Source of the DNA: Clostridia bacterium
GTDB lineage: Bacteria; Bacillota; Clostridia; Oscillospirales; CAG-272
Length of the DNA: 64,000 bases
Direction of reading: 5' to 3'
Assembly: GCA_017483195.1 (NCBI GenBank)
Contig: JAFULR010000016.1
Span: 73,310 to 137,309 of the forward strand
Within the stretch, counting starts at the first letter, position 1, and each line of letters opens with the position of its first letter. Under the pieces are notes generated by a model. It worked only from the letters and a program-made list of their open reading frames with translations, searched no databases and was not told the origin of the DNA. Below, one piece after another: positions 3,318-63,314 of this stretch. The position numbers and the translations under genes are program-made.

Positions 3318-3612
3318 TTAACGCACAAACTTATGCGATAAAGTTTTCGTCCACCTTTTTCAAAAGGTGGCGCGGGTACGGGGCGCGTAGCCCTGTATTC
3401 AGCGTTTCTTTTGTTAGCTTTTCTTTGCGCTTTCTGTGTCAAAGAAAAGCGGCTGACTGCTATTGGTATCAAAGGTCCTTTAACGCTTTTTCTTTTGAGA
3501 AAGTAGCCCCAAAAGAAAAAGCTTTGCAAAAAGAAAATGGGCGTATTCGCCTGCGCGGCGGGCGCCCGCTTTTGAAAAAGCGGGGCAAAACAGCAAGTTG
3601 GTTTGTGCTAAC
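3318..3612. repeat. hairpin-rich mosaic intergenic repeat (copy E)
   Basis: Strong hairpins at 3351-3370, 3417-3450, 3485-3522 and 3565-3585. Inverted ends GCACAAAC (3323-3330) and GTTTGTGC (3601-3608). The 32-nt block 3560-3591 is identical to 9931-9962. Confidence 0.7.
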
Positions 3613-4933: not shown

Positions 4934-5182
4934 ATGAAGAAGATGACTGTGAAAATTCTTTCGATGATACTTGTTATCGCATTTGCGTTTGGAGTGATGT
5001 CAGTTCCGATTTTCGCGACGAACGCAGAGATCGAGGAGGAAGAGTACCACAATCCGCTTGGAGATTTTATGTCTGCAATTCTTATCGTTGCAGGCGTCGC
5101 ACTTTCGATAATTGCCATAGTGGAATTGATCTTCGAGTATATAGTGTCATCCATTGGAAATTGGATTAACGGAATAGCATAA
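4934..5182 (+). CDS. small secreted/membrane protein, unknown function
   Basis: 82 aa with an AGGAGG RBS directly upstream. Signal-peptide-like N-terminus, acidic EIEEEE stretch and one C-terminal TM helix. A terminator follows. Confidence 0.55.
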   Translation: MKKMTVKILSMILVIAFAFGVMSVPIFATNAEIEEEEYHNPLGDFMSAILIVAGVALSIIAIVELIFEYIVSSIGNWINGIA

Positions 5183-5190
5183 AAAATAAG

Positions 5191-5218
5191 GGAACAACCG
5201 CGAGGTTGTTCCTTTTTT
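5191..5218 (+). terminator. intrinsic terminator
   Basis: GGAACAACC-GCGA-GGTTGTTCC stem-loop followed by TTTTTT. Confidence 0.8.
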
Positions 5219-5225
5219 GTTGCTT

Positions 5226-5519
5226 TTCAAATTTTTGATTTATTGGTCACTTTTTTCGAGAAAAAAGTGACCAAAAAAGCTTTAATCAGCTTCGCGGCAA
5301 TACCAATAAAATCTGTACTAACCTGTAGGGACCGGCGTCCCCGACGGTCCATAACGATGAAATAACATCAAATTTCACGGCTACGCACAAACAAAATCCA
5401 ACATTTTTGAACAAAAGTTACTTTGCTTTTGAATTGGACCGTCGGGGACGCCGGTCCCTACAAGGTTACTTCAATTAAAAATGAATTTGTACTAATCCCT
5501 CGCTAAATCCCAATTTATC
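5226..5519 (-). repeat. mosaic dyad-symmetric intergenic repeat (copy D, inverted orientation)
   Basis: Ends are TTCAAATTTTTGATTTATTGG (5226-5246) and TCCCTCGCTAAATCCCAATTTATC (5496-5519), the reverse complements of the ends seen at 13072-13495. Palindrome at 5243-5274. Perfect 27-bp inverted repeat 5324-5350 / 5436-5462. Confidence 0.75.
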
Positions 5520-5560: not shown

Positions 5561-6778
5561 TTATTTAATTACAACCTTCTTAAAGTTCTTCTTACCTCTT
5601 CTTACGAGGATGCCGTCCTTAAGATCTGCGGCTGTGAAGCTGTGGCGAAGATTTGTGATCTTTTCGTCGTTGACCGTTACGCCGCCCTGTTCAACTGCTC
5701 TGCGAGCTTCACTACGAGAGGGAACAAGCTCCGCTTTAACGAGAACGGAGAGAATGTCGATCGCGCCGTCCTGAAGATCGGATTCTGCAAGCTCAACTGT
5801 GGGAGCGTTATCCGCGCCGCCCGTGAAGAGTGAGCGAGCCATTGCCTGCGCCTTTTCTGCCTCGTCCTTTCCGTGTACCATCTCTGTAAGCTCATAAGCA
5901 AGGATCTCCTTTGCACGGTTGAGCTGTGCGCCCTCCCAGGTATCCATCTCGTTGATCTGCTCAATGGGAAGGAAGGTGAGCATTCTGATGCACTTAAGCA
6001 CGTCAGCGTCGCCAACGTTTCTCCAGTACTGGTAGAACTCAAAGGGACTTGTCTTGTTAGGATCGAGCCAAACTGCGTTGCCTGCGGTCTTGCCCATCTT
6101 TTTGCCCTGAGAGTCGGTGAGAAGGGTGATAGTCATAGCGTGAGCGTCCTTGCCAAGCTTTCTTCTGATAAGCTCGGTACCGCCAAGCATATTTGACCAC
6201 TGATCGTCGCCGCCGAACTGCATATTGCAGTTGTAGTTCTTGAAAAGGTGGTAGAAGTCGTAGGACTGCATTATCATATAGTTGAATTCAAGGAAGGAAA
6301 GACCCTTTTCCATTCTCTGCTTGTAGCACTCTGCAGAGAGCATTCTGTTTACAGAGAAGCACGCGCCGACCTCACGAAGAAGCTCAACGTAATTGAGATC
6401 AAGGAGCCATTCGGCATTGTTGATCATAGTTGCCTTGCCTTCACCAAAGTCGATGAATCTCTCCATCTGACGCTTAAAGCACTCTGCGTTGTGGTTGATA
6501 TCCTCGATCGTGAGCATCTTTCTCATATCGGTTCTGCCCGAGGGGTCGCCGATCATTGTCGTGCCGCCGCCGATTAGGGCGATGGGCTTGTTGCCTGCCA
6601 TCTGCAAGCGTTTCATAAGTGTAAGAGCCATAAAGTGACCTGCCGTCAAGCTGTCTGCGGTGCAGTCAAAGCCGATGTAGAAGGTCGCCTTGCCCTCGTT
6701 GATCATATTTCTGATCTCTTCCTCGTTTGTAACCTGAGCAATAAGCCCACGCGCAACGAGTTCTTCATAGATTTTCAT
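5561..6778 (-). CDS. tyrS: tyrosyl-tRNA synthetase
   Basis: 405 aa. HIGH-type motif (ADSLTAGHF), KMSKS-type motif (KKMGKT) and a C-terminal S4-like domain. RBS AGGAGA. A Tyr-specific T-box lies upstream. Confidence 0.93.
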   Translation of the reverse strand: MKIYEELVARGLIAQVTNEEEIRNMINEGKATFYIGFDCTADSLTAGHFMALTLMKRLQMAGNKPIALIGGGTTMIGDPSGRTDMRKMLTIEDINHNAECFKRQMERFIDFGEGKATMINNAEWLLDLNYVELLREVGACFSVNRMLSAECYKQRMEKGLSFLEFNYMIMQSYDFYHLFKNYNCNMQFGGDDQWSNMLGGTELIRRKLGKDAHAMTITLLTDSQGKKMGKTAGNAVWLDPNKTSPFEFYQYWRNVGDADVLKCIRMLTFLPIEQINEMDTWEGAQLNRAKEILAYELTEMVHGKDEAEKAQAMARSLFTGGADNAPTVELAESDLQDGAIDILSVLVKAELVPSRSEARRAVEQGGVTVNDEKITNLRHSFTAADLKDGILVRRGKKNFKKVVIK

Positions 6779-6843
6779 AATTTTTCTCCTATCTGAAATG
6801 TAATTGTTAACTATTTATAAGTAACTTTGAATTAGGTAAGAAG

Positions 6844-7423
6844 GGAACTCCCTCACCGCCTACGGCGGAGCTCCCTCTGCGGAAGGAGCCTCGGTGAGAT
6901 AATCCTCGATTTATCAAATATAGTATTTGAAAAACTATTGTTTGCTACTTTTAACTTTATTGATTTCGGCATCCAAGTACCCGCAAACCCAAGTGAAATC
7001 CTTATCGATTTGCTTATTCGGTATTCTGATTATTTGAATACCTTGTTTATTTATTTCTTCGGTGCGTATTTTATCTTTTTCAATACCCTCTTTTGAATAG
7101 TGTTGATTTCCGTCAATTTCAATAGCAATTTTCAAGCTTGGACAATAGAAATCAACAATGTATTCTCCTATTGCTTTTTGCCTTTGAAATTTCACTTCAT
7201 AATTTTTTAAAAAGTCATACCAAAGGTGTTTTTCTTGCGGTGTAGATCTTTTTCTTAGGTTTTTTGCTAAAACTATGTTTTTTCCATTATAAATTATTGG
7301 CATAATTTTACCTCTGAAAAGTTTTATTAAATTGTTATGTTAAACTTTATGGCTACACAAGAGAGAAGATCTTACCGAGGCTCCTTCCGAGGAGGGAGCT
7401 CCGCGAAGCGGTGAGGGAGTTCC
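6844..7423 (-). mobile_element. TIR-bounded cassette carrying a DUF559 endonuclease gene
   Basis: 6844-6900 and 7369-7423 are ~55-nt imperfect inverted repeats whose outer 16 nt (GGAACTCCCTCACCGC) are identical. They enclose a single ORF. The first 48 nt are identical to 63067-63114. Confidence 0.7.
6935..7303 (-). CDS. DUF559 domain protein (Vsr/restriction-endonuclease-like fold)
   Basis: 122 aa. STPQEKHLW...KFQRQKAIGEYIVDFYCPSLKIAIEIDGNQH...IRIPN matches the conserved DUF559 pattern. RBS GAGGT. Confidence 0.85.
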   Translation of the reverse strand: MPIIYNGKNIVLAKNLRKRSTPQEKHLWYDFLKNYEVKFQRQKAIGEYIVDFYCPSLKIAIEIDGNQHYSKEGIEKDKIRTEEINKQGIQIIRIPNKQIDKDFTWVCGYLDAEINKVKSSKQ

Positions 7424-7445
7424 TACTTGAAGTAAAAGTAACTAT

Positions 7446-7705
7446 AAAAAAATAAAAAGTCCCTGAACCCAAACGGGTTCAAGGACGAATTAGCGTGATA
7501 CCACCTTGCTTCGAGCGAAATGCGTGCATTTTGCTCCTCATTATGCGCTGTAACGGGCGCGCCGTTGCCGCCTACTCTCAAAACGGATTTCGGGACAAAG
7601 CTCCGAGATGTATTCGCGTTATGTTTTCTGCGCCTCTCACCCACCGGCAGCTCTCTGTAGAAAAGGGAAAACGTTACTGCTTCTCTTCATAGCATTAATT
7701 TATTA
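7446..7705 (-). promoter_or_regulatory. T-box riboswitch leader, tyrosine specifier (UAC)
   Basis: Read on the minus strand: K-turn/AGUA region, AG bulge CAGAGAGC and distal loop GGUGGGUGAGAG. Specifier GAA-UAC-A (UAC = 7610-7612), F-box CCGUUAC and T-box AAGGUGGUAUCACG. Terminator at 7459-7486 followed by a U-tract. Confidence 0.88.
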
Positions 7706-7711
7706 CAAGCT

Positions 7712-7740
7712 ATATTAACATAAAATTTACACGTTGTCAA
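7712..7740 (-). promoter_or_regulatory. sigma-A type promoter of the tyrS T-box leader
   Basis: Minus strand: TTGACA (7740-7735), 17-nt spacer, TAATAT (7717-7712). It overlaps the 3' end of mtaB. Confidence 0.55.
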
Positions 7741-9052
7741 CGATTTCCGCAAAAAAAGTTTCACCGTTGTGGCTTATCAATCTGACAAATGCCACCTCGG
7801 AGTGAAGGGGCTTCTCACTTTTAACGCAGACCTCAAGAAAATCGGGAGTGTGACCGTATGCCTTTCCGTTTTCAAAGCTTTCAAAAAGGACCCTGTGAGC
7901 GCCGCCTTGCGCCAAAATTCGGTCGAATTCTTCTTTGCGTATGCTCTTTTCAAGGGAGATAAGCTCCGCTGAGCGCATTTTTTTGATCTCCTGAGGTATC
8001 TGTTCTCCCATTTTTGCCGCAGGTGTTCCTTGGCGGGCAGAGAAGGGGAAAACGTGTATCATAAGGAAATTAGCTTTTTTTGCAAATTCAAGTGTTTCAT
8101 TGAAATCCTCGTCGGTTTCACCGGGAAATCCCACAATTATATCGGTGGTGTAACGAACGGCGGGCATAGCTGCGCGAAGTCGCTCCATATTGGCAAGTGC
8201 CTGATCGGCATTGTATTTACGCTTCATATTGCGAAGGGTTTTTGAGCTGCCCGACTGCATTGAAATGTGAAAATGGGGAGCGAGCTTTTTGAGATCTTTA
8301 ATCTTGTTTACGAATTTCTCCGTAAGACAGGAGGGATCGAGCGAGCCGAGACGAATGGTAAAATCGCCCTCTATCGCGTCTATATCGCAAAGAAGATCCG
8401 CGAAGGTGTAGCCGTCAATATCCTTTCCGTAGGATGCGGTCTCGATGCCCGTAAGCACCACCTCGCGACAGCCGTTTTTCACAAAGTGAGTTACCTCGCA
8501 AATTACCTCCTCTGGCACTTTTGAGCGTATTTTTCCTCGTGCGTAAGGGATGATACAATACGTACATTTACTCTCGCAGCCGTCCTCAATTTTGATATAT
8601 GCGCGCGTGCGGTCAAAATGCTTTATCTCCATTTTTTCAAAGCCTGCGGAGTCGATATCGCGCACGAAAATCTCGGTTTTTGCGTTCTTCTCATCGCGTT
8701 CAAAAAGGTCGCAAAGAGCTTCTGCGATAATGAGCTTGTCCGTGTTACCGCAAACGTAGTCAACTCCGGATATAGCCGCAATATTTTGCGGATTTGTCTG
8801 AGCAAGGCAACCCGTAACCAGAATGTATGCCTCTGGATTTCTTGAGATCGCGCGGCGGATAAACTGACGCGCCTTTCGGTCGCTCTCAGCCGTTACGGTG
8901 CAGGTATTTATAATGTATGCATCGCATTCCTCGGTGCTTGGCTTTATTTCAAAGCCCTGAGAAGTGAGACGCTCGGCTATTGCCTCGCTCTCATACTGGT
9001 TAACCTTGCATCCAAGCGTAAGTATGCCGACGCTCTTTCTAAAATCGTTCAT
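7727..9052 (-). CDS. mtaB: tRNA threonylcarbamoyladenosine methylthiotransferase MtaB (radical SAM)
   Basis: 441 aa. N-terminal TLGCKVNQYESEA (MtaB/YqeV type rather than MiaB) and radical-SAM motif CESKCTYCIIP. Confidence 0.82.
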   Translation of the reverse strand: MNDFRKSVGILTLGCKVNQYESEAIAERLTSQGFEIKPSTEECDAYIINTCTVTAESDRKARQFIRRAISRNPEAYILVTGCLAQTNPQNIAAISGVDYVCGNTDKLIIAEALCDLFERDEKNAKTEIFVRDIDSAGFEKMEIKHFDRTRAYIKIEDGCESKCTYCIIPYARGKIRSKVPEEVICEVTHFVKNGCREVVLTGIETASYGKDIDGYTFADLLCDIDAIEGDFTIRLGSLDPSCLTEKFVNKIKDLKKLAPHFHISMQSGSSKTLRNMKRKYNADQALANMERLRAAMPAVRYTTDIIVGFPGETDEDFNETLEFAKKANFLMIHVFPFSARQGTPAAKMGEQIPQEIKKMRSAELISLEKSIRKEEFDRILAQGGAHRVLFESFENGKAYGHTPDFLEVCVKSEKPLHSEVAFVRLISHNGETFFAEIVDNV

Positions 9053-9892: not shown

Positions 9893-10424
9893 AAATTAAG
9901 TTAGTTTACTTTGAACCGCTCACGCCGCTTGGGCGCCCGCTTTTGAAAAAGCGGGGCAAAACGATCGCTTGGTTTGAGCGCGACTTGGGTACCGCGCGAC
10001 GCCGTAAGGTGTCATCCTCGAGGGAGCAACGCGACCGAAGGATCTTGCGCGGAGTACAGACTAAATCCGCGTAAATTTTCGATAAAACACCGGTGTTTTA
10101 TCGGTTTTGAAGCTCCGATATCGTCCTTACACGCGAGCGTGATGGCTGATACCGTATCTTCAAAACTACGAAAAATCAAATTGGAAATTTGATTTTTCTA
10201 AAATTTGTTTACTATTATTGCAGACGTAAAGAAAGTGCTAATATACCGTCTATTGAGATCGTAGCAAATTACAGATTTTGCTTGCAAAATCGTTATGTGT
10301 TGCTCAGCAACACAATTTGCGCGGATTTAGTCGGGTTAGTACTAACTAAACGGCTTTTGGGCAAAGCGCTTTTAAGCTTTTTGGTTCTTTTTCTCGAAAA
10401 AGAACAATCCTTATCTATCTAACT
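9893..10424 (+). repeat. mosaic intergenic repeat (copy A, expanded, termini truncated)
   Basis: Shares the module CAATTTGCGCG...CTAAACGGCT...GGGCAAAGC...TTTTAAGCTTTTT (10313-10381) with copies B and C. Inverted repeat 10049-10078 / 10313-10345. Perfect palindromes at 10079-10103 and 10171-10197. Confidence 0.7.
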
Positions 10425-10445
10425 CTAAAAAAGCTTGGAGAAAAA

Positions 10446-13071: not shown

Positions 13072-13495
13072 TAATTGGGGTTTAGCGGGGAGTTAGTTTA
13101 GTTGGGATTTAGGGGGCATTTTTGAAAAAATTGCCCCCTATAACCCCTAAAAAACTTTAAATCGTTTTGCAAACAAACTTCGCGCAAATTGTGTTGTTTC
13201 ACAACACACAACGATTTTCTCCCTTGTCGAAAATCTGTAATTTGCTTGTGTAAAGAGTAGCCATTAGCTTATGCAAACCGGCTTCGTGCCGTGTAGCAAA
13301 TTACAATTTTTCGAGGTGACGAGAAAAATTTTCAGTACCAATTTATTGGTACAATTTGCGCGAAATCCGTGGACTCAGCACAGACTAAACGGCTACTGGG
13401 CAAAGCTATTTTAAGCTTTTTTGGTTACTTTTTTCTCGAAAAAAGTAACACCCTTTCTTAACACAAACTATCTCCCCGATAAATCAAAATTTGAA
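13072..13495 (+). repeat. mosaic dyad-symmetric intergenic repeat (copy B, full length 424 bp)
   Basis: Left end is TAATTGGGGTTTAGCGGGGAG and right end is CTCCCCGATAAATCAAAATTTGAA. The left half aligns with the reverse complement of the right half. Central inverted repeat CGCGCAAATTG (13181-13191) / CAATTTGCGCG (13352-13362). Confidence 0.8.
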
Positions 13496-23291: not shown

Positions 23292-23714
23292 AAATTGGAA
23301 TTTATGGTGGAGATAGTTTAATTTGGAATAGCAGGGGGCTTTTTTGAAAAGCCGCCCCCTGCACCCCCGAAAAACTTTTAAAGTATTTTATCACTAAATT
23401 CCGCGCAAATTGTTCCGCAAGCGGAACGAGACGATTTTCTTTGCATTTTAACAGGCGCAAAGAAAATCTCTAATTTGCTAATGCAAATAATAACCATTTG
23501 CTTTGCTTGTGGCTATAGATAGAGTAGCAAATTGCAGTTTTTCGACAAGGGAGAAAAACGTTATGTGTTGCTCCGCAACACAATTTGCGCGAAATCCGTG
23601 GAGTCAGTACAGACTAAACGGCTACTGGGCAAAGCTATTTTAAGCTTTTGCCAAGCTTTTCTCGAAAAGCGTCCTTTTTTTTCTAACTAATTCCCCTATA
23701 AATCAAAATTTGAA
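23292..23714 (+). repeat. mosaic dyad-symmetric intergenic repeat (copy C, full length 423 bp)
   Basis: Ends are AAATTGGAATTTATGGTGGAG and TTCCCCTATAAATCAAAATTTGAA. 23581-23649 matches 13352-13420 at 67/69 nt. Central inverted repeat CGCGCAAATTG (23402-23412) / CAATTTGCGCG (23581-23591). Confidence 0.8.
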
Positions 23715-32763: not shown

Positions 32764-35082
32764 ATGAAAAACTTGAAAATTGCTACACTGTTGGTATTTG
32801 TAATCGTTGTTATGATTTTCACACTTACTTCCTGTGAATTTATAAACAACATTTTTCCAAATCCCAACACGGGCCACACCCATACTTACAATGAAGGTAA
32901 GTGCGAATGCGGAGCAGAGGATCCTGACTATGTTCCTCCTCACGAACACAGCTACACAACTGTAGTTACAGACCCCACATGTACTGAAAAAGGCTACACA
33001 ACCTACACATGTGCTTGTGGCGATACCTACGTAGCTGACGAGGTTGAAGCATCCGGTCACGATTATGAAGCAACCGTTACAGCTCCCACATGTACTGAAA
33101 AAGGCTATACAACCTACACATGTGCTTGTGGCGACACCTATGTAGCTGACGAGGTTGAAGCATCCGGTCACGATTATGAAGCAACCGTTACAGCTCCTAC
33201 ATGTACAGAGGATGGTTACACAACCTACACATGTGCTTGTGGCGATAGCTACGTTGACGATGAAGTTCCTGCAGCTCATACCTACAATGATGACGGTATT
33301 TGCACAGCTTGTGGAGATCAGATTTCCGCAATTCCTGTTGAAGGCAAGGGATACATCTTCGGAATGTATCAGGGTAAGCTTAATAAAGTGTACTACCTTA
33401 AGGGTGGTATGAGTGGATACTATATGGCAACTACCGATAATCCCGATGAAGCTCTCTATGTATTTATTGAGGCAACTGAAGGTGGATACTATATGTATTG
33501 CTATGTAAATGGTGTAAAGACATACATTAACATGGTTGTTTCCGGTACACACGTAAACGGTGCTTATGCTACCACAGCTTCTACTGTTTATACAATCGAT
33601 CCCGAAAGCAAGACACTTATAGCAAATGTTAACGGAGAAGATTATTGGTTCGCTACCAGAAATGATAATACATATACAACCATGGGACCCTGCAAGGTTT
33701 CCTACGATGGTTTCTACGGTGAATTCTACTATGAACACGAGCATTCTTTTGAGGTTAGTGAAGTTGTTGCTCCTACATGTACAGGAGTAGGATATACTCT
33801 CCATGCTTGTGCTTGCGGTGCAACCAAGAAGACTGATGAAATTGATGCTCTCGGTCACAAAGGAGGCGAATGGGAGATTGAATCCAACGCTACTTGTGAA
33901 GAAGCAGGCAAGAAAGTGATCAAATGTCAAAACGAAGGATGCGGTGAGGTGCTTGAAAGCGAAGAAATCCCCGCGCTCGGTCATACTTACGTTGACGGCA
34001 AGTGTGCTTGCGGAGCTGAAGACCCCGACTACGCGGCTCATGAGCACAAATATACAGAAACAATTACTGCACCCACTTGTACAGTTGAAGGCGTTAAGAC
34101 TTTCACATGTGCTTGCGGTGATACTTATACAGAAGCTATTCCTGTAGTTGATCATATCGATACAAACCTTGATATTACTTGTGACTTTGAGGGATGCACA
34201 AAGAGAATCCTTCCTGCCGCAAACAGTAAAGTGTCTCTCTTTACTGCAAATCATATGATCATTGTATCTCTCAGCAGCAGCTATTATGTTGAGGGTGTTA
34301 TAATTGAAATCACCGATGCTAAAAACGGTATTTTCATTATACAGGATGAAGCGGGTGACACTATTCTTGTTAGAATGCCCAAGAATGAAGCAGGTGTTGC
34401 TTATTCCTCTTGGACAGCTAATAAAGTAGTTGTTGGTGATACCGTTCAGATATACGGTAAGCCCGCCAGAAATACTGGCTCTCCTGCAACACAATCTGCC
34501 AAGATCGAAAGCGGAATACTTACAATCCTTAAGCATGAGCATTCATTCAGCGAAGCAACCTGTGATAAGGCTTCCGTTTGTGCTTGTCTTGCAGTAGGTG
34601 AGCCCGCACTTGGACACATTGATGAAAACGCAGATAACGTTTGTGACCGTTGTCCTTGGAAAATGAATATGGCAAAATCAAGTATTGCAATCGGTACAGC
34701 AGAGAAGTATAACGGAGTTCTTGATGCTGCTCAGACTTTCTGGACTTGGAGTAATGATGATTTTGATGCTGTTATAGCAAAGGGAACATCAACATTTACC
34801 ATTTATAAAACTGCTAAGGATTACATGCAGCTTAAGAAGCAGAACACATTTACATTGGTTAACAAGAGCGGTGTTGTAATTACAAGTATTACTATTAAAG
34901 CAAGCAATGCAACTCAGCTCAATAACCTTGTAAATGCAATCGGTAATCAGTATACAGTAACTACAAATACAGATGACCTTAGTGTTACTATCGAGTGGAA
35001 TAAGACAGATGATTTTACCTTTAGTAATATTAGCACTACAACTGTATATATCAGTGGTGTTGAAGTCATTTACGAAAAGTAA
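32764..35082 (+). CDS. surface lipoprotein with repeated Cys/His modules, an OB-fold-like domain and an unknown C-terminal domain
   Basis: 772 aa. Signal peptide with lipobox LTSC. Repeated H-x-Y...PTCTE-GY...C-CG...GH modules. The 34260-34520 segment resembles the OB fold of extracellular nucleases. Confidence 0.8.
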   Translation: MKNLKIATLLVFVIVVMIFTLTSCEFINNIFPNPNTGHTHTYNEGKCECGAEDPDYVPPHEHSYTTVVTDPTCTEKGYTTYTCACGDTYVADEVEASGHDYEATVTAPTCTEKGYTTYTCACGDTYVADEVEASGHDYEATVTAPTCTEDGYTTYTCACGDSYVDDEVPAAHTYNDDGICTACGDQISAIPVEGKGYIFGMYQGKLNKVYYLKGGMSGYYMATTDNPDEALYVFIEATEGGYYMYCYVNGVKTYINMVVSGTHVNGAYATTASTVYTIDPESKTLIANVNGEDYWFATRNDNTYTTMGPCKVSYDGFYGEFYYEHEHSFEVSEVVAPTCTGVGYTLHACACGATKKTDEIDALGHKGGEWEIESNATCEEAGKKVIKCQNEGCGEVLESEEIPALGHTYVDGKCACGAEDPDYAAHEHKYTETITAPTCTVEGVKTFTCACGDTYTEAIPVVDHIDTNLDITCDFEGCTKRILPAANSKVSLFTANHMIIVSLSSSYYVEGVIIEITDAKNGIFIIQDEAGDTILVRMPKNEAGVAYSSWTANKVVVGDTVQIYGKPARNTGSPATQSAKIESGILTILKHEHSFSEATCDKASVCACLAVGEPALGHIDENADNVCDRCPWKMNMAKSSIAIGTAEKYNGVLDAAQTFWTWSNDDFDAVIAKGTSTFTIYKTAKDYMQLKKQNTFTLVNKSGVVITSITIKASNATQLNNLVNAIGNQYTVTTNTDDLSVTIEWNKTDDFTFSNISTTTVYISGVEVIYEK
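32941..33279 (+). repeat. in-frame tandem repeat, 111-bp unit, ~3 copies
   Basis: Units start at about 32947, 33058 and 33169. Each encodes HDYEATVTAPTCTEKGYTTYTCACGDTYVADEVEASG or a close variant. Copies 1-2 are nearly identical at the DNA level. Confidence 0.9.
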
Positions 35083-37496: not shown

Positions 37497-37506
37497 ATGA
37501 CTGATC

Positions 37507-37559
37507 TTCAAATTTTTATTTATAGAGGAATACCACTCCCCTATAAATCAAAATTTGAA
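37507..37559. repeat. minimal 53-bp member of the mosaic repeat family (two termini only)
   Basis: TTCAAATTTTTATTTATAGAGGA (37507-37529) and TCCCCTATAAATCAAAATTTGAA (37537-37559) are inverted (21/23) and separated by 7 nt. Confidence 0.75.
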
Positions 37560-62982: not shown

Positions 62983-63019
62983 ATTTTTTGCTCCTTTTTT
63001 AGATTATGTAATGTGGAAT

Positions 63020-63314
63020 AATTGGGGTTTAGCGGGAAATTAAAAAGTAAGTTTATTTGTGCAACAGGAACTCCCTCACCGCCTACGGCGGAGCTCCCTC
63101 TGCGGAAGGAGCCTATTTAAGATGACCTTTCACAATTAGCTGTACAACTTAAATTGTTTGATGCTATATGGTTTTTAAATACTTTATGGCTACATAAGGA
63201 GGAACATCTTACCGAGGCTCCTTCCGCAGAGGGAGCTGTCATTTTCCTTGGAAAATGACTGAGGGAGTTCCCCTTTTTTAAGAAAACCAACTTTCCAATA
63301 AATCAAGATTTGAA
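63020..63314 (+). repeat. mosaic repeat family member hosting a nested DUF559-type TIR element
   Basis: Left end AATTGGGGTTTAGCGGG (63020-63036) and right end CCAATAAATCAAGATTTGAA (63295-63314), the same termini as copies B and C. The interior is replaced by 63067-63271. Confidence 0.7.
63067..63271 (-). mobile_element. gene-less (MITE-like) derivative of the DUF559 cassette
   Basis: 63067-63114 is identical (48/48) to 6844-6891. The right TIR 63206-63271 matches 7369-7423 apart from one swapped hairpin. The subterminal ACTTTATGGCTACA is shared with 7344-7357. No ORF inside. Confidence 0.75.

Follow-up and report, generated by a model that had tools for sequence, protein, structure and literature searches.

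A polymorphic DUF559 nuclease cassette with hairpin arms, inserted between a T-box terminator and tyrS in Clostridia, is probably a selfish mobile element

What is a gene for a Vsr-like nuclease doing between the regulatory leader of an essential aminoacyl-tRNA synthetase gene and its start codon? The question arises in a 64,000-nt stretch of DNA from a Clostridia bacterium (Oscillospirales, CAG-272; contig JAFULR010000016.1, positions 73,310 to 137,309), which is called the window below and whose own coordinates are used throughout. On its minus strand, mtaB, a tyrosine (Tyr) T-box, the T-box terminator, a 630-bp insert (6816–7445) and tyrS (5561–6778) follow one another. The insert carries one gene, for a 122-aa protein of the DUF559 family (6935–7303), between two inverted, hairpin-forming arms (7369–7423 and 6844–6900). 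A preliminary description of this DNA took it for a small selfish element with the DUF559 nuclease as its sole gene, and empty sites, gene-less copies and other DUF559 genes with arms support that proposal. We conclude that 6816–7445 is probably a selfish mobile cassette driven by its nuclease. Its mobility, both horizontal and within genomes, is well supported; that the nuclease is the driver, through a homing-like route, is what we infer.

Filled and empty alleles, whose junctions were read by eye, delimit the cassette. Contig L003, from another sample, encodes an identical TyrS protein (tyrS 99.3% identical in nucleotides, T-box essentially identical), and its terminator T-tract runs straight to the tyrS ribosome-binding site with no cassette in between. 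Five more contigs (L134–137 and L148), with TyrS 98–99% identical to that of the window, are likewise empty. In the species of the window (species A) the filled allele is found in the window, L001, L002 and L004–L008, with 0 mismatches in 630 positions across these eight contigs. A sister species (species B; TyrS 95% identical in amino acids, tyrS 87.1% in nucleotides to the window) segregates both alleles: one identical TyrS protein is present on 22 contigs, and among the ten shown six are empty and three filled. The empty L138 and the filled L139 agree at every position over 1218 nt of tyrS and 966 nt of upstream sequence. Their junctions read GGGACTTTTTT / AATTAAGTTAAAT / ATTACATTTTAG when empty and GGGACTTTTTT / ATAGTTAC ... 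CTTATAAATAGTTAAAA / ATTACATTTTAG when filled, 13 nt beside the insert being replaced in the filled form. The tenth contig, L147, starts exactly at ATTACATTTTAG, the right edge of the variable segment, which fits an assembly-graph bubble at the filled/empty polymorphism. The cassette is a presence/absence polymorphism within species. The bounds first suggested for it, 6816–7443, nearly match the indel, whose actual limits are 6816–7445. The tyrS site is also filled in two more species-level metagenome-assembled genomes (MAGs), L033 and L034, and probably in a third, L049.

Sequence divergence indicates how the cassette reached this site. Between the window and species B it is 94.5–95% identical in nucleotides, and the synonymous divergence (dS) is 0.17 for the DUF559 gene as opposed to 0.76 for tyrS and 1.31 for mtaB. 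The cassette must therefore have moved horizontally into the same site, and vertical inheritance in this pair is ruled out. For L033 and L034, where dS is about 1.1 as opposed to about 0.9, vertical inheritance is possible. The flanks point to the same kind of event. The terminator hairpin is GTCCTTGAACCCGTTTGGGTTCAGGGAC in the window, L138 and L139, and GTCCTTGGGTTTTCACCCAAGGAC in L003, L134–137 and L148; the filled allele of the window thus has the species-B type of hairpin, unlike the empty alleles of its own species. Only nine differences separate tyrS of the window from that of L003, and three of them lie within the first 105 nt (positions 27, 87 and 105), all with the species B base. A donor-type terminator together with donor bases in tyrS indicates that a short stretch of donor flank arrived along with the cassette. 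Species B has two cassette haplotypes that differ at 19 of 652 positions, and the flanks differ at 0–3 of 2184. Between species the cassette is much younger than its flanks, and it entered horizontally with replacement of adjacent flank. A three-way scan of informative sites with L134 was noisy because L134 is mosaic in mtaB. As a separate observation, mtaB has a dS of 0.73 between the window and L134, compared to 0.22 for tyrS, at near-identical TyrS; its divergence likewise exceeds that of tyrS for L003, which suggests that the region around the locus is a mosaic produced by recombination. The possibility that phages or plasmids carry the cassette was considered and rejected, as there were only 2 phage and 36 plasmid matches, all at <40% identity; the arm pattern was not found in 2.9 million viral contigs, which held 16 weak DUF559 loci.

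The same kind of unit occupies other loci. Related cassettes (76–85% amino acid identity) lie between the valS T-box terminator and valS in L012, L150–162 and L172–174, and the valS leader of a close relative, L169, is empty. Two relatives with 96% identical valS have different cassettes with different arm types at one valS site. Further cassettes stand directly downstream of the upp terminator in L009 and L175. An identical 124-aa protein, P0029, is encoded at both valS and upp, where the two loci share 646 of 659 nt, beginning exactly at GTTAGTTT after each T-run. This demonstrates translocation of a gene-carrying unit between non-homologous sites. A left junction of the tyrS type, a T-run followed by ATAGTTAC or GTTAGTTT, recurs at valS and upp, and the preferred site of the cassette is directly after the T-tract of an intrinsic terminator. 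In each of the four contexts seen, the DUF559 gene and the gene upstream of it point the same way. The tree that bears on jumps between tyrS and valS has bootstrap support of 16–52%. Separately, a repeated module GGGCGCCCGCTTTTGAAAAAGCGGGGCAAAAC... is present in the window at 3560–3608 and 9931–9979 (86% identical); its copy after upp is preceded by a T-run and AAGTTAGTTT, the spot where L009 and L175 carry a DUF559 cassette.

What marks the ends of the insert? The preliminary description pointed to near-identical 11-mers at 6816–6826 and 7433–7443 as a possible target duplication. They exist and match at 10 of 11 positions; both lie inside the inserted segment and belong to a conserved terminal module of many copies, and for this reason they were not accepted as a plain duplication of the target. 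The module AGTWASTTT stands 12–17 nt outside the GGAACTCCC box in dozens of further copies. Taken together, the position of the 11-mers within the insert ends and the recurrence of AGTWASTTT identify them as terminal modules in inverted relation. The left module, ATAGTTACTTTTA (7433–7445, minus strand), directly follows the terminator T-tract and contains one 11-mer; the right module, AAAGTTACTTATA (6816–6828, minus strand), contains the other. A better candidate for a target duplication, as yet unproven, is the 7-nt direct repeat ATAGTTA at 7439–7445 and 6808–6814 (minus strand), which could also be a recombination core. The insert is flanked by ATAGTTA at tyrS and by ATAGTTA/ATAGATA at valS, and the single copies in the empty sites are related, not identical. 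All three empty sites have a T-run and then a single (A/C)GTTAA in common. AGTTA-like cores mark both the cassette ends and its internal joints.

All features of the locus lie on the minus strand. The mtaB-like radical-SAM gene (7727–9052) precedes a promoter-like site (7712–7740: TTGACA, 17-nt spacer, TAATAT, with a TG extension), which is the only strong sigma-70-like match within 6700–7760. The T-box leader (7478–7699) matches RF00230 with 105.1 bits (gathering score 93; E = 1.4e-23), the sole Rfam match in the whole window, and has the specifier GAA-UAC-A, UAC being a Tyr codon. Its terminator (7446–7486) consists of a hairpin (7459–7486) and a T-tract (7446–7458). The well-formed Tyr T-box terminator of the first reading was seen correctly, as were the distances, counted to the arms, of 22 nt from terminator to cassette and 65 nt from cassette to the tyrS ATG. 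Predictions within 6700–7760 are limited to the promoter and the terminator of the T-box; inside the cassette there are neither predicted promoters nor predicted terminators. From its upstream end, the cassette comprises the left terminal module, the 5′ arm (7369–7423), a 5′ untranslated region (7304–7368) with a GTAGCC box (7351–7356) and the ribosome-binding site AGAGGT (7310–7315), the DUF559 gene (6935–7303), the 3′ arm (6844–6900) and the right terminal module. Its composition is foreign: the GC content is 35% for the cassette and 30% for the DUF559 gene, as against 45% for the window, and GC at third codon positions is 27% in the DUF559 gene versus 62% in tyrS.

The inverted repeats of ~55 bp proposed at the outset are real. 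The arms measure 55 and 57 nt and match over 57 nt at 87.7%; their outer 16 nt (6844–6859 / 7408–7423) are 100% complementary, and the 36 nt of 6865–6900 / 7369–7404 match at 92%. Chance would give 0.32 matches to the outer 16-mer in the window with up to 3 mismatches allowed; there are 4, a number attained in 0 of 100 shuffles. From the outside in, an arm consists of AGTWASTTT, a spacer of 12–17 nt, the box GGAACTCCCTCA, a variable hairpin, the box AGCTCCCTC, a short loop and GAAGGAGCC. The variable hairpin is CCGC-TTC-GCGG in the 5′ arm and CCGCC-GTA-GGCGG in the 3′ arm, the inverted copy. Among 25 different variable-hairpin sequences, the stem is perfect over 4 or more pairs in 76%, compared to 5.5% for shuffles, so that structure is under selection; this fits a DNA-level and an RNA-level role equally well. 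A search of Rfam gave no known RNA family for the arms at E <= 1, and single arms are not unusually stable as RNA (z-scores –0.3 to –2.1).

The enclosed open reading frame (ORF), the only one in the 630 bp, was correctly recognized from its DUF559 pattern: the protein matches PF04480 with 88.4 bits (cut-off 20.6 bits; E = 3.7e-25). No further Pfam domain was found in its 122 aa, and no DDE, HUH, serine or tyrosine transposase is encoded by the cassette. Residues D51, E62, D64, H68, D77, R80, R93, N96 and Q98 are invariant in 40 homologues; the first five are the acidic and His residues of catalysis, which are thus conserved. The ratio of non-synonymous to synonymous divergence (dN/dS) among nine cassettes is 0.03–0.18, and the gene is under purifying selection; judged by sequence it is conserved and apparently encodes an active enzyme. 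The AlphaFold model (mean confidence score, pLDDT, 87.6) consists of a nuclease core and two short N-terminal helices. Its top Foldseek match is 3HRL, a Neisseria DUF559 protein (E = 7e-6), followed by 3R3P, the catalytic domain of I-Bth0305I (E = 8e-5, probability 1.0, template-modelling (TM) scores 0.60/0.74); PvuRts1I/AbaSI and Vsr (1cw0/1vsr) match more weakly. Phmmer also finds 3R3P (E = 0.016), PHROG families named ‘homing endonuclease’ match at E = 1.6e-7 and 4.6e-6, and PADLOC reports a homing-endonuclease match too. On the predicted structure, the nearest characterized relative is the homing endonuclease I-Bth0305I. The preliminary description is thus only partly right in denying DUF559 a known role in mobility, since the family has been classed with Vsr and with this Vsr-like homing endonuclease (PMC3424549, PMC2677866, PMC3239194). 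In a published survey, Vsr, DUF559 and DUF2726 share a clade with 3R3P (PMC3424549). The family is very large, with 19,443 clusters at 50% identity for E <= 1e-3 and 3,266 for E <= 1e-10. Many homologues (P0362–P0510) are annotated as 30–100 aa longer than the core of ~120 aa; these extensions may be ORF calls that run into GC-rich arms.

Arms also occur without the gene. Between a terminator and the enolase gene, the window holds a long-form copy at 63019–63314 (plus strand), which has both arms (63067–63114 and 63206–63272) and extra outer modules, TAATTGGGGTTTAGCGGG... and ...CCAATAAATCAAGATTTGAA, and no nuclease gene. The 5′ untranslated region of the cassette is shared with the centre of such doublets (81% identity between 7328–7400 and 63165–63237). 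The only informative contig for the enolase site, L167, is also filled, and no polymorphism was seen there. A scan for the arm core in one genome per species gave 43 loci in 10 MAGs of uncultured Clostridia, Eubacteriales and Lachnospiraceae, in addition to two chance matches; the gene is carried only in L009, L012, L033, L034 and probably L049. One MAG, RGIG9556, has 19 arm loci, mostly at contig ends, with near-identical copies that begin (GA)TAAATTGGGATTTATCGGGGAG. Gene-less and gene-carrying copies thus both exist, and the gene is missing from about 85% of the loci with arms in these 10 MAGs. A second arm type has the form AACTACACCCG, hairpin, CCACCCTCTTC...GAAGAGGGCTC, hybrid doublets occur as well, and where the gene lies with respect to the central GTAGCC module varies between lineages. 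Two local arrangements were seen besides. A nested insert of ~60 nt, GATGCGGGGTTCCCCGAAACGAGCGTAGCCGAGTTTTGGGGGTTCGCGCGGTTGG, sits in the loop of the inner hairpin at 610–680 of L012, and also in L034 and L175, which adds another level to the modularity. At 1880–2520 of L163, a DUF559 gene without a 3′ arm is immediately preceded by two tandem gene-less doublets, each with a type-1 and a type-2 arm, and the following ORF begins 25 nt past the stop codon of this gene.

The cassette is part of something larger than was first supposed. Conserved sequence in the gene-less copies reaches about 47 nt past the repeat of the preliminary description, and the unit belongs to a larger mosaic repeat system, which resembles bacterial interspersed mosaic elements (BIMEs). 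The outer modules are found in other repeats of the window (13072–13495, 23526–23714 and 10286–10425), all just after terminators. These loci hold a second, intergenic mosaic family, with a core of ~96 nt (AAAATCGTTATGTGTTGCTC...GGCTACTGGGCAAAGC...) bounded by the outer modules TAATTGGGGTTTAGCGGGGAG / CTCCCCGATAAATCAAAATTTGAA. Directly after another terminator, at 37505–37559, a palindrome of ~55 bp consists of two outer modules only (TTCAAATTTTTATTTATAGAGGA...CTCCCCTATAAATCAAAATTTGAA) and looks like an ‘empty carrier’ for mosaic repeats.

The association of DUF559 genes with arms extends beyond close relatives, inverted arms of this architecture being found at other DUF559 genes too. From 80 metagenome loci with DUF559 proteins 44–60% identical to that of the window, 64 had enough flank on both sides for an inverted-repeat test. 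Flanking inverted repeats (score at least 16) were present at 14 of the 64 genes and at 2 of 269 random placements on the same contigs (Fisher P = 2e-9). The distant arms differ in sequence and keep the architecture X, loop, X′, GC hairpin, X′; some distant families have whole doublets on both sides of the gene (L071, L083). In a published survey, DUF559 coding sequences are enriched, with an odds ratio of 14.3, among predicted targets of programmed inversion (PMC9881135), which we regard as an independent sign of flanking inverted repeats. A second DUF559 gene of RGIG9556 (1100–1700 of L011; 51% identical) has its own arms, GAGGGGAAGGGGGACCATCTTTGATGGTGGATGAGGGG / CCCCTCATCCACCGCAAGCGGTCCCCCT; one genome can therefore harbour several lineages of DUF559 gene plus arms. 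The idea that DUF559 and T-boxes are linked in general was rejected: 291 kb of distant DUF559 loci contained one T-box motif, not adjacent to the gene.

How might such a cassette spread? We suggest that the DUF559 gene, having no promoter of its own, would be transcribed only by read-through of the upstream terminator, in which case the nuclease would be made at tyrS and valS when the cognate tRNA is uncharged. The co-orientation of the gene and the lack of predicted internal promoters and terminators fit such coupling of its expression to tRNA-Tyr charging. Targets that lack the cassette or its gene may then be cut by the nuclease, at the AGTTA-type core next to the T-tract or close to it, and recombinational repair from a filled copy would install the cassette, as in homing; at new loci the repeated arms and terminal modules could provide the homology. 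In a predicted fold of the read-through RNA of the cassette the arms pair (dG –197 versus –132 kcal/mol for shuffles, z = –8.7). Such pairing would bring the tyrS ribosome-binding site near the T-box, and the paired arms might be processed in the manner of RNase III, tyrS expression surviving the insertion. Pairing or processing of this kind would make it understandable that an insert is tolerated ahead of an essential gene.

Several points weigh against a nuclease-driven selfish cassette. There is no strict pairing of arm types (type 1, type 2 and hybrid) with particular protein variants. Outer repeats GATTTATCGGGGAG terminate the high-copy long form; they are absent from the tyrS cassette and common to other repeat families of the window, so a separate transposition machinery may operate. 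Homing alone does not account for how gene-less doublets came to lie at many unrelated loci. Ordinary transformation and recombination, with no nuclease involved, would also import the cassette together with its flank. The target duplication is at the candidate stage only. Since the tyrS site is filled in four species, some empty alleles could be losses, not ancestral sites. Finally, at 122 aa the protein is too small for a classical homing enzyme with a long target: the additional DNA-binding region on which I-Bth0305I relies for such a target is missing (PMC3239194), which makes specific recognition of empty sites uncertain.

Some of these points suit an explanation in which the nuclease is a passenger: the arms would resemble miniature inverted-repeat transposable elements (MITEs) or repetitive extragenic palindromic (REP) sequences moved by an unlinked transposase, and DUF559 would be cargo, or a trapped gene that serves the cell in Vsr-type repair or as a minimal restriction or defence nuclease. 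Most of the loci with arms lack the gene, the GATTTATCGGGGAG ends of the long forms are common to unrelated interior modules, the carrier of ~55 bp at 37505–37559 has no interior at all, and arm types mix freely with protein variants. A PADLOC match to the nuclease domain of methyl-directed restriction enzymes (E = 7.7e-12) also suits a defence role, and defence genes are likewise polymorphic in presence and horizontally transferred. Against this, the gene and arms are gained and lost as a whole unit, shared between non-homologous loci from the first base, and distant DUF559 genes are specifically enriched for arms at the P-value given above. There is no methyltransferase or other partner gene next to the cassette, no transposase was seen near any copy examined, and a sensor-less protein of 122 aa makes an unlikely defence system. 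We consider a passenger nuclease possible, though unlikely.

Alternatively, DUF559 might belong to the hairpin doublets as their own nuclease, acting on arm hairpins or cruciforms and mobilizing gene-less doublets in trans, much as has been proposed for REP-associated tyrosine transposases (RAYTs) and their REP doublets forming hairpins (REPINs). A nuclease gene between inverted hairpin repeats, the doublets on both sides of the gene in L071 and L083, the dispersal of doublets at high copy, an X-loop-X′-hairpin-X′ architecture kept across families that differ in sequence and the retention of the variable hairpin stem (76% versus 5.5%) all resemble that system. RAYTs, however, are HUH Y1 enzymes, and a PD-(D/E)XK nuclease has no known strand-transfer chemistry; the DUF559 gene is polymorphic, horizontally moved and present at two to three loci instead of being single-copy and vertical; arms and protein variants are not cognate; and the conserved hairpin is equally compatible with action at RNA or DNA level. 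On balance, mobilization of this kind seems improbable. Still less credible is an invertible switch, by which the arms would invert the DUF559 segment relative to the T-box promoter and make its expression phase-variable. Inverted repeats of 57 nt at 88% identity could serve this purpose, and DUF559 genes are overrepresented among predicted inversion targets, but that overrepresentation may merely reflect flanking repeats, no recombinase gene is adjacent, and in every assembled copy at tyrS, valS or upp (more than 20 contigs, several species) the gene has the orientation of its upstream gene. That the segment is ancestral, fixed and non-mobile and serves regulation as a component of the tyrS leader, as the filled site in four species-level lineages might suggest, is scarcely tenable given empty alleles within two species, identical flanks of filled and empty alleles, a cassette dS 4 to 8 times below that of the flanks and copies at other loci.

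How does a selfish cassette of this kind compare with known systems? Free-standing Vsr-like (EDxHD) homing endonucleases, such as I-Bth0305I and the enzymes of ‘fractured genes’ (PMC2677866, PMC3239194), have the same nuclease fold, are small selfish AT-rich genes at fixed sites beside essential genes, and show presence/absence polymorphism with replaced adjacent flank; hairpins upstream of the start codon have been reported for them too (PMC2677866). Unlike the cassette, they have an extra DNA-binding region (I-Bth0305I is much larger), reside in introns and split inteins of phage and environmental genes, and have neither terminal inverted repeats nor gene-less derivatives. The cassette protein has only 122 aa, and its gene lies in an untranslated leader of a bacterial chromosome, is bounded by structured arms and is almost absent from viral collections. 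With REP/REPIN sequences and their RAYT genes (REPtrons), and with BIME mosaics, the cassette shares a nuclease gene between inverted hairpin repeats, gene-less inverted doublets dispersed in intergenic regions, often just after terminators, and mosaic modules. It differs in having an enzyme of PD-(D/E)XK Vsr-like fold, not an HUH Y1 transposase, longer arms than a REPIN (about 55–90 nt each, with two hairpins per arm), and a polymorphic, horizontally moved gene where that for RAYT is single-copy and vertical. Terminal inverted repeats, a majority of gene-less over gene-carrying copies, contigs that break at copies and near-identical gene-less copies within one genome (RGIG9556) recall MITEs and their parent insertion sequences; unlike these, the cassette has no transposase of a known family, and the position of its gene relative to the arm modules differs between lineages. 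E. coli YcjD, other solitary DUF559 proteins (PRK09767) and Vsr have the catalytic motif ExDGxxH and the Pfam family in common with the cassette protein, which scores 56.7 bits with the YcjD model, far under the equivalog cut-off of 218 bits. No repeat (REP) features are annotated around ycjD of E. coli K-12, and, unlike Vsr, the cassette has no partner methyltransferase.

The components, a Vsr-like homing nuclease, MITE/REP-like repeats and a T-box, are thus of known kinds; their combination, the target and the implied function of DUF559 are new. In the literature searched we found no account of DUF559 cassettes with hairpin arms or gene-less derivatives, and none of a mobile element between a T-box terminator and its synthetase gene. 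As a tentative generalization, which we put forward with considerable reserve, part of the small DUF559 proteins may be nucleases of an unrecognized class of selfish elements, characterized by a promoter-less gene within hairpin modules, a post-terminator target and read-through expression (induced by uncharged tRNA at tyrS and valS); they would generate or mobilize REPIN-like gene-less doublets, and form a non-HUH counterpart of the RAYT/REPIN system. Selfish mobility offers a testable function for part of the DUF559 family, and would tie a Vsr-like nuclease to REP/MITE-like hairpin repeats, so far linked only to HUH transposases. With a mobile element lodged in the riboswitch-controlled leaders of essential genes for aminoacyl-tRNA synthetases, one may ask how tyrS and valS are expressed and regulated through 630 extra structured nucleotides, and amino-acid starvation might induce the nuclease of the element. 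In practical terms, metagenome assembly of these gut Clostridia breaks off at the repeats, and the cassette can conveniently serve to mark strains.

Further repeats were noted in the window. The region downstream of tyrS (5190–5480 and 4934–5182) is repeat-rich, with a copy of the outer module at 5226–5246, a perfect 28-nt inverted repeat, TGTAGGGACCGGCGTCCCCGACGGTCCA, at 5324–5351 / 5435–5462, and a AAAGTTACTTT palindrome at 5414–5424; a GGGACCGGCGTCCCCGACGGTCC module from this region is also found in L042. Strains vary here: an 82-aa ORF and the repeats just listed are absent from L134, and L002 has a carboxylesterase gene instead. At 32947–34128, a large ORF unrelated to the cassette contains tandem 111-nt (37-codon) repeats that encode a Cys-containing motif, ...TCTEKGYTTYTCACGDTY....

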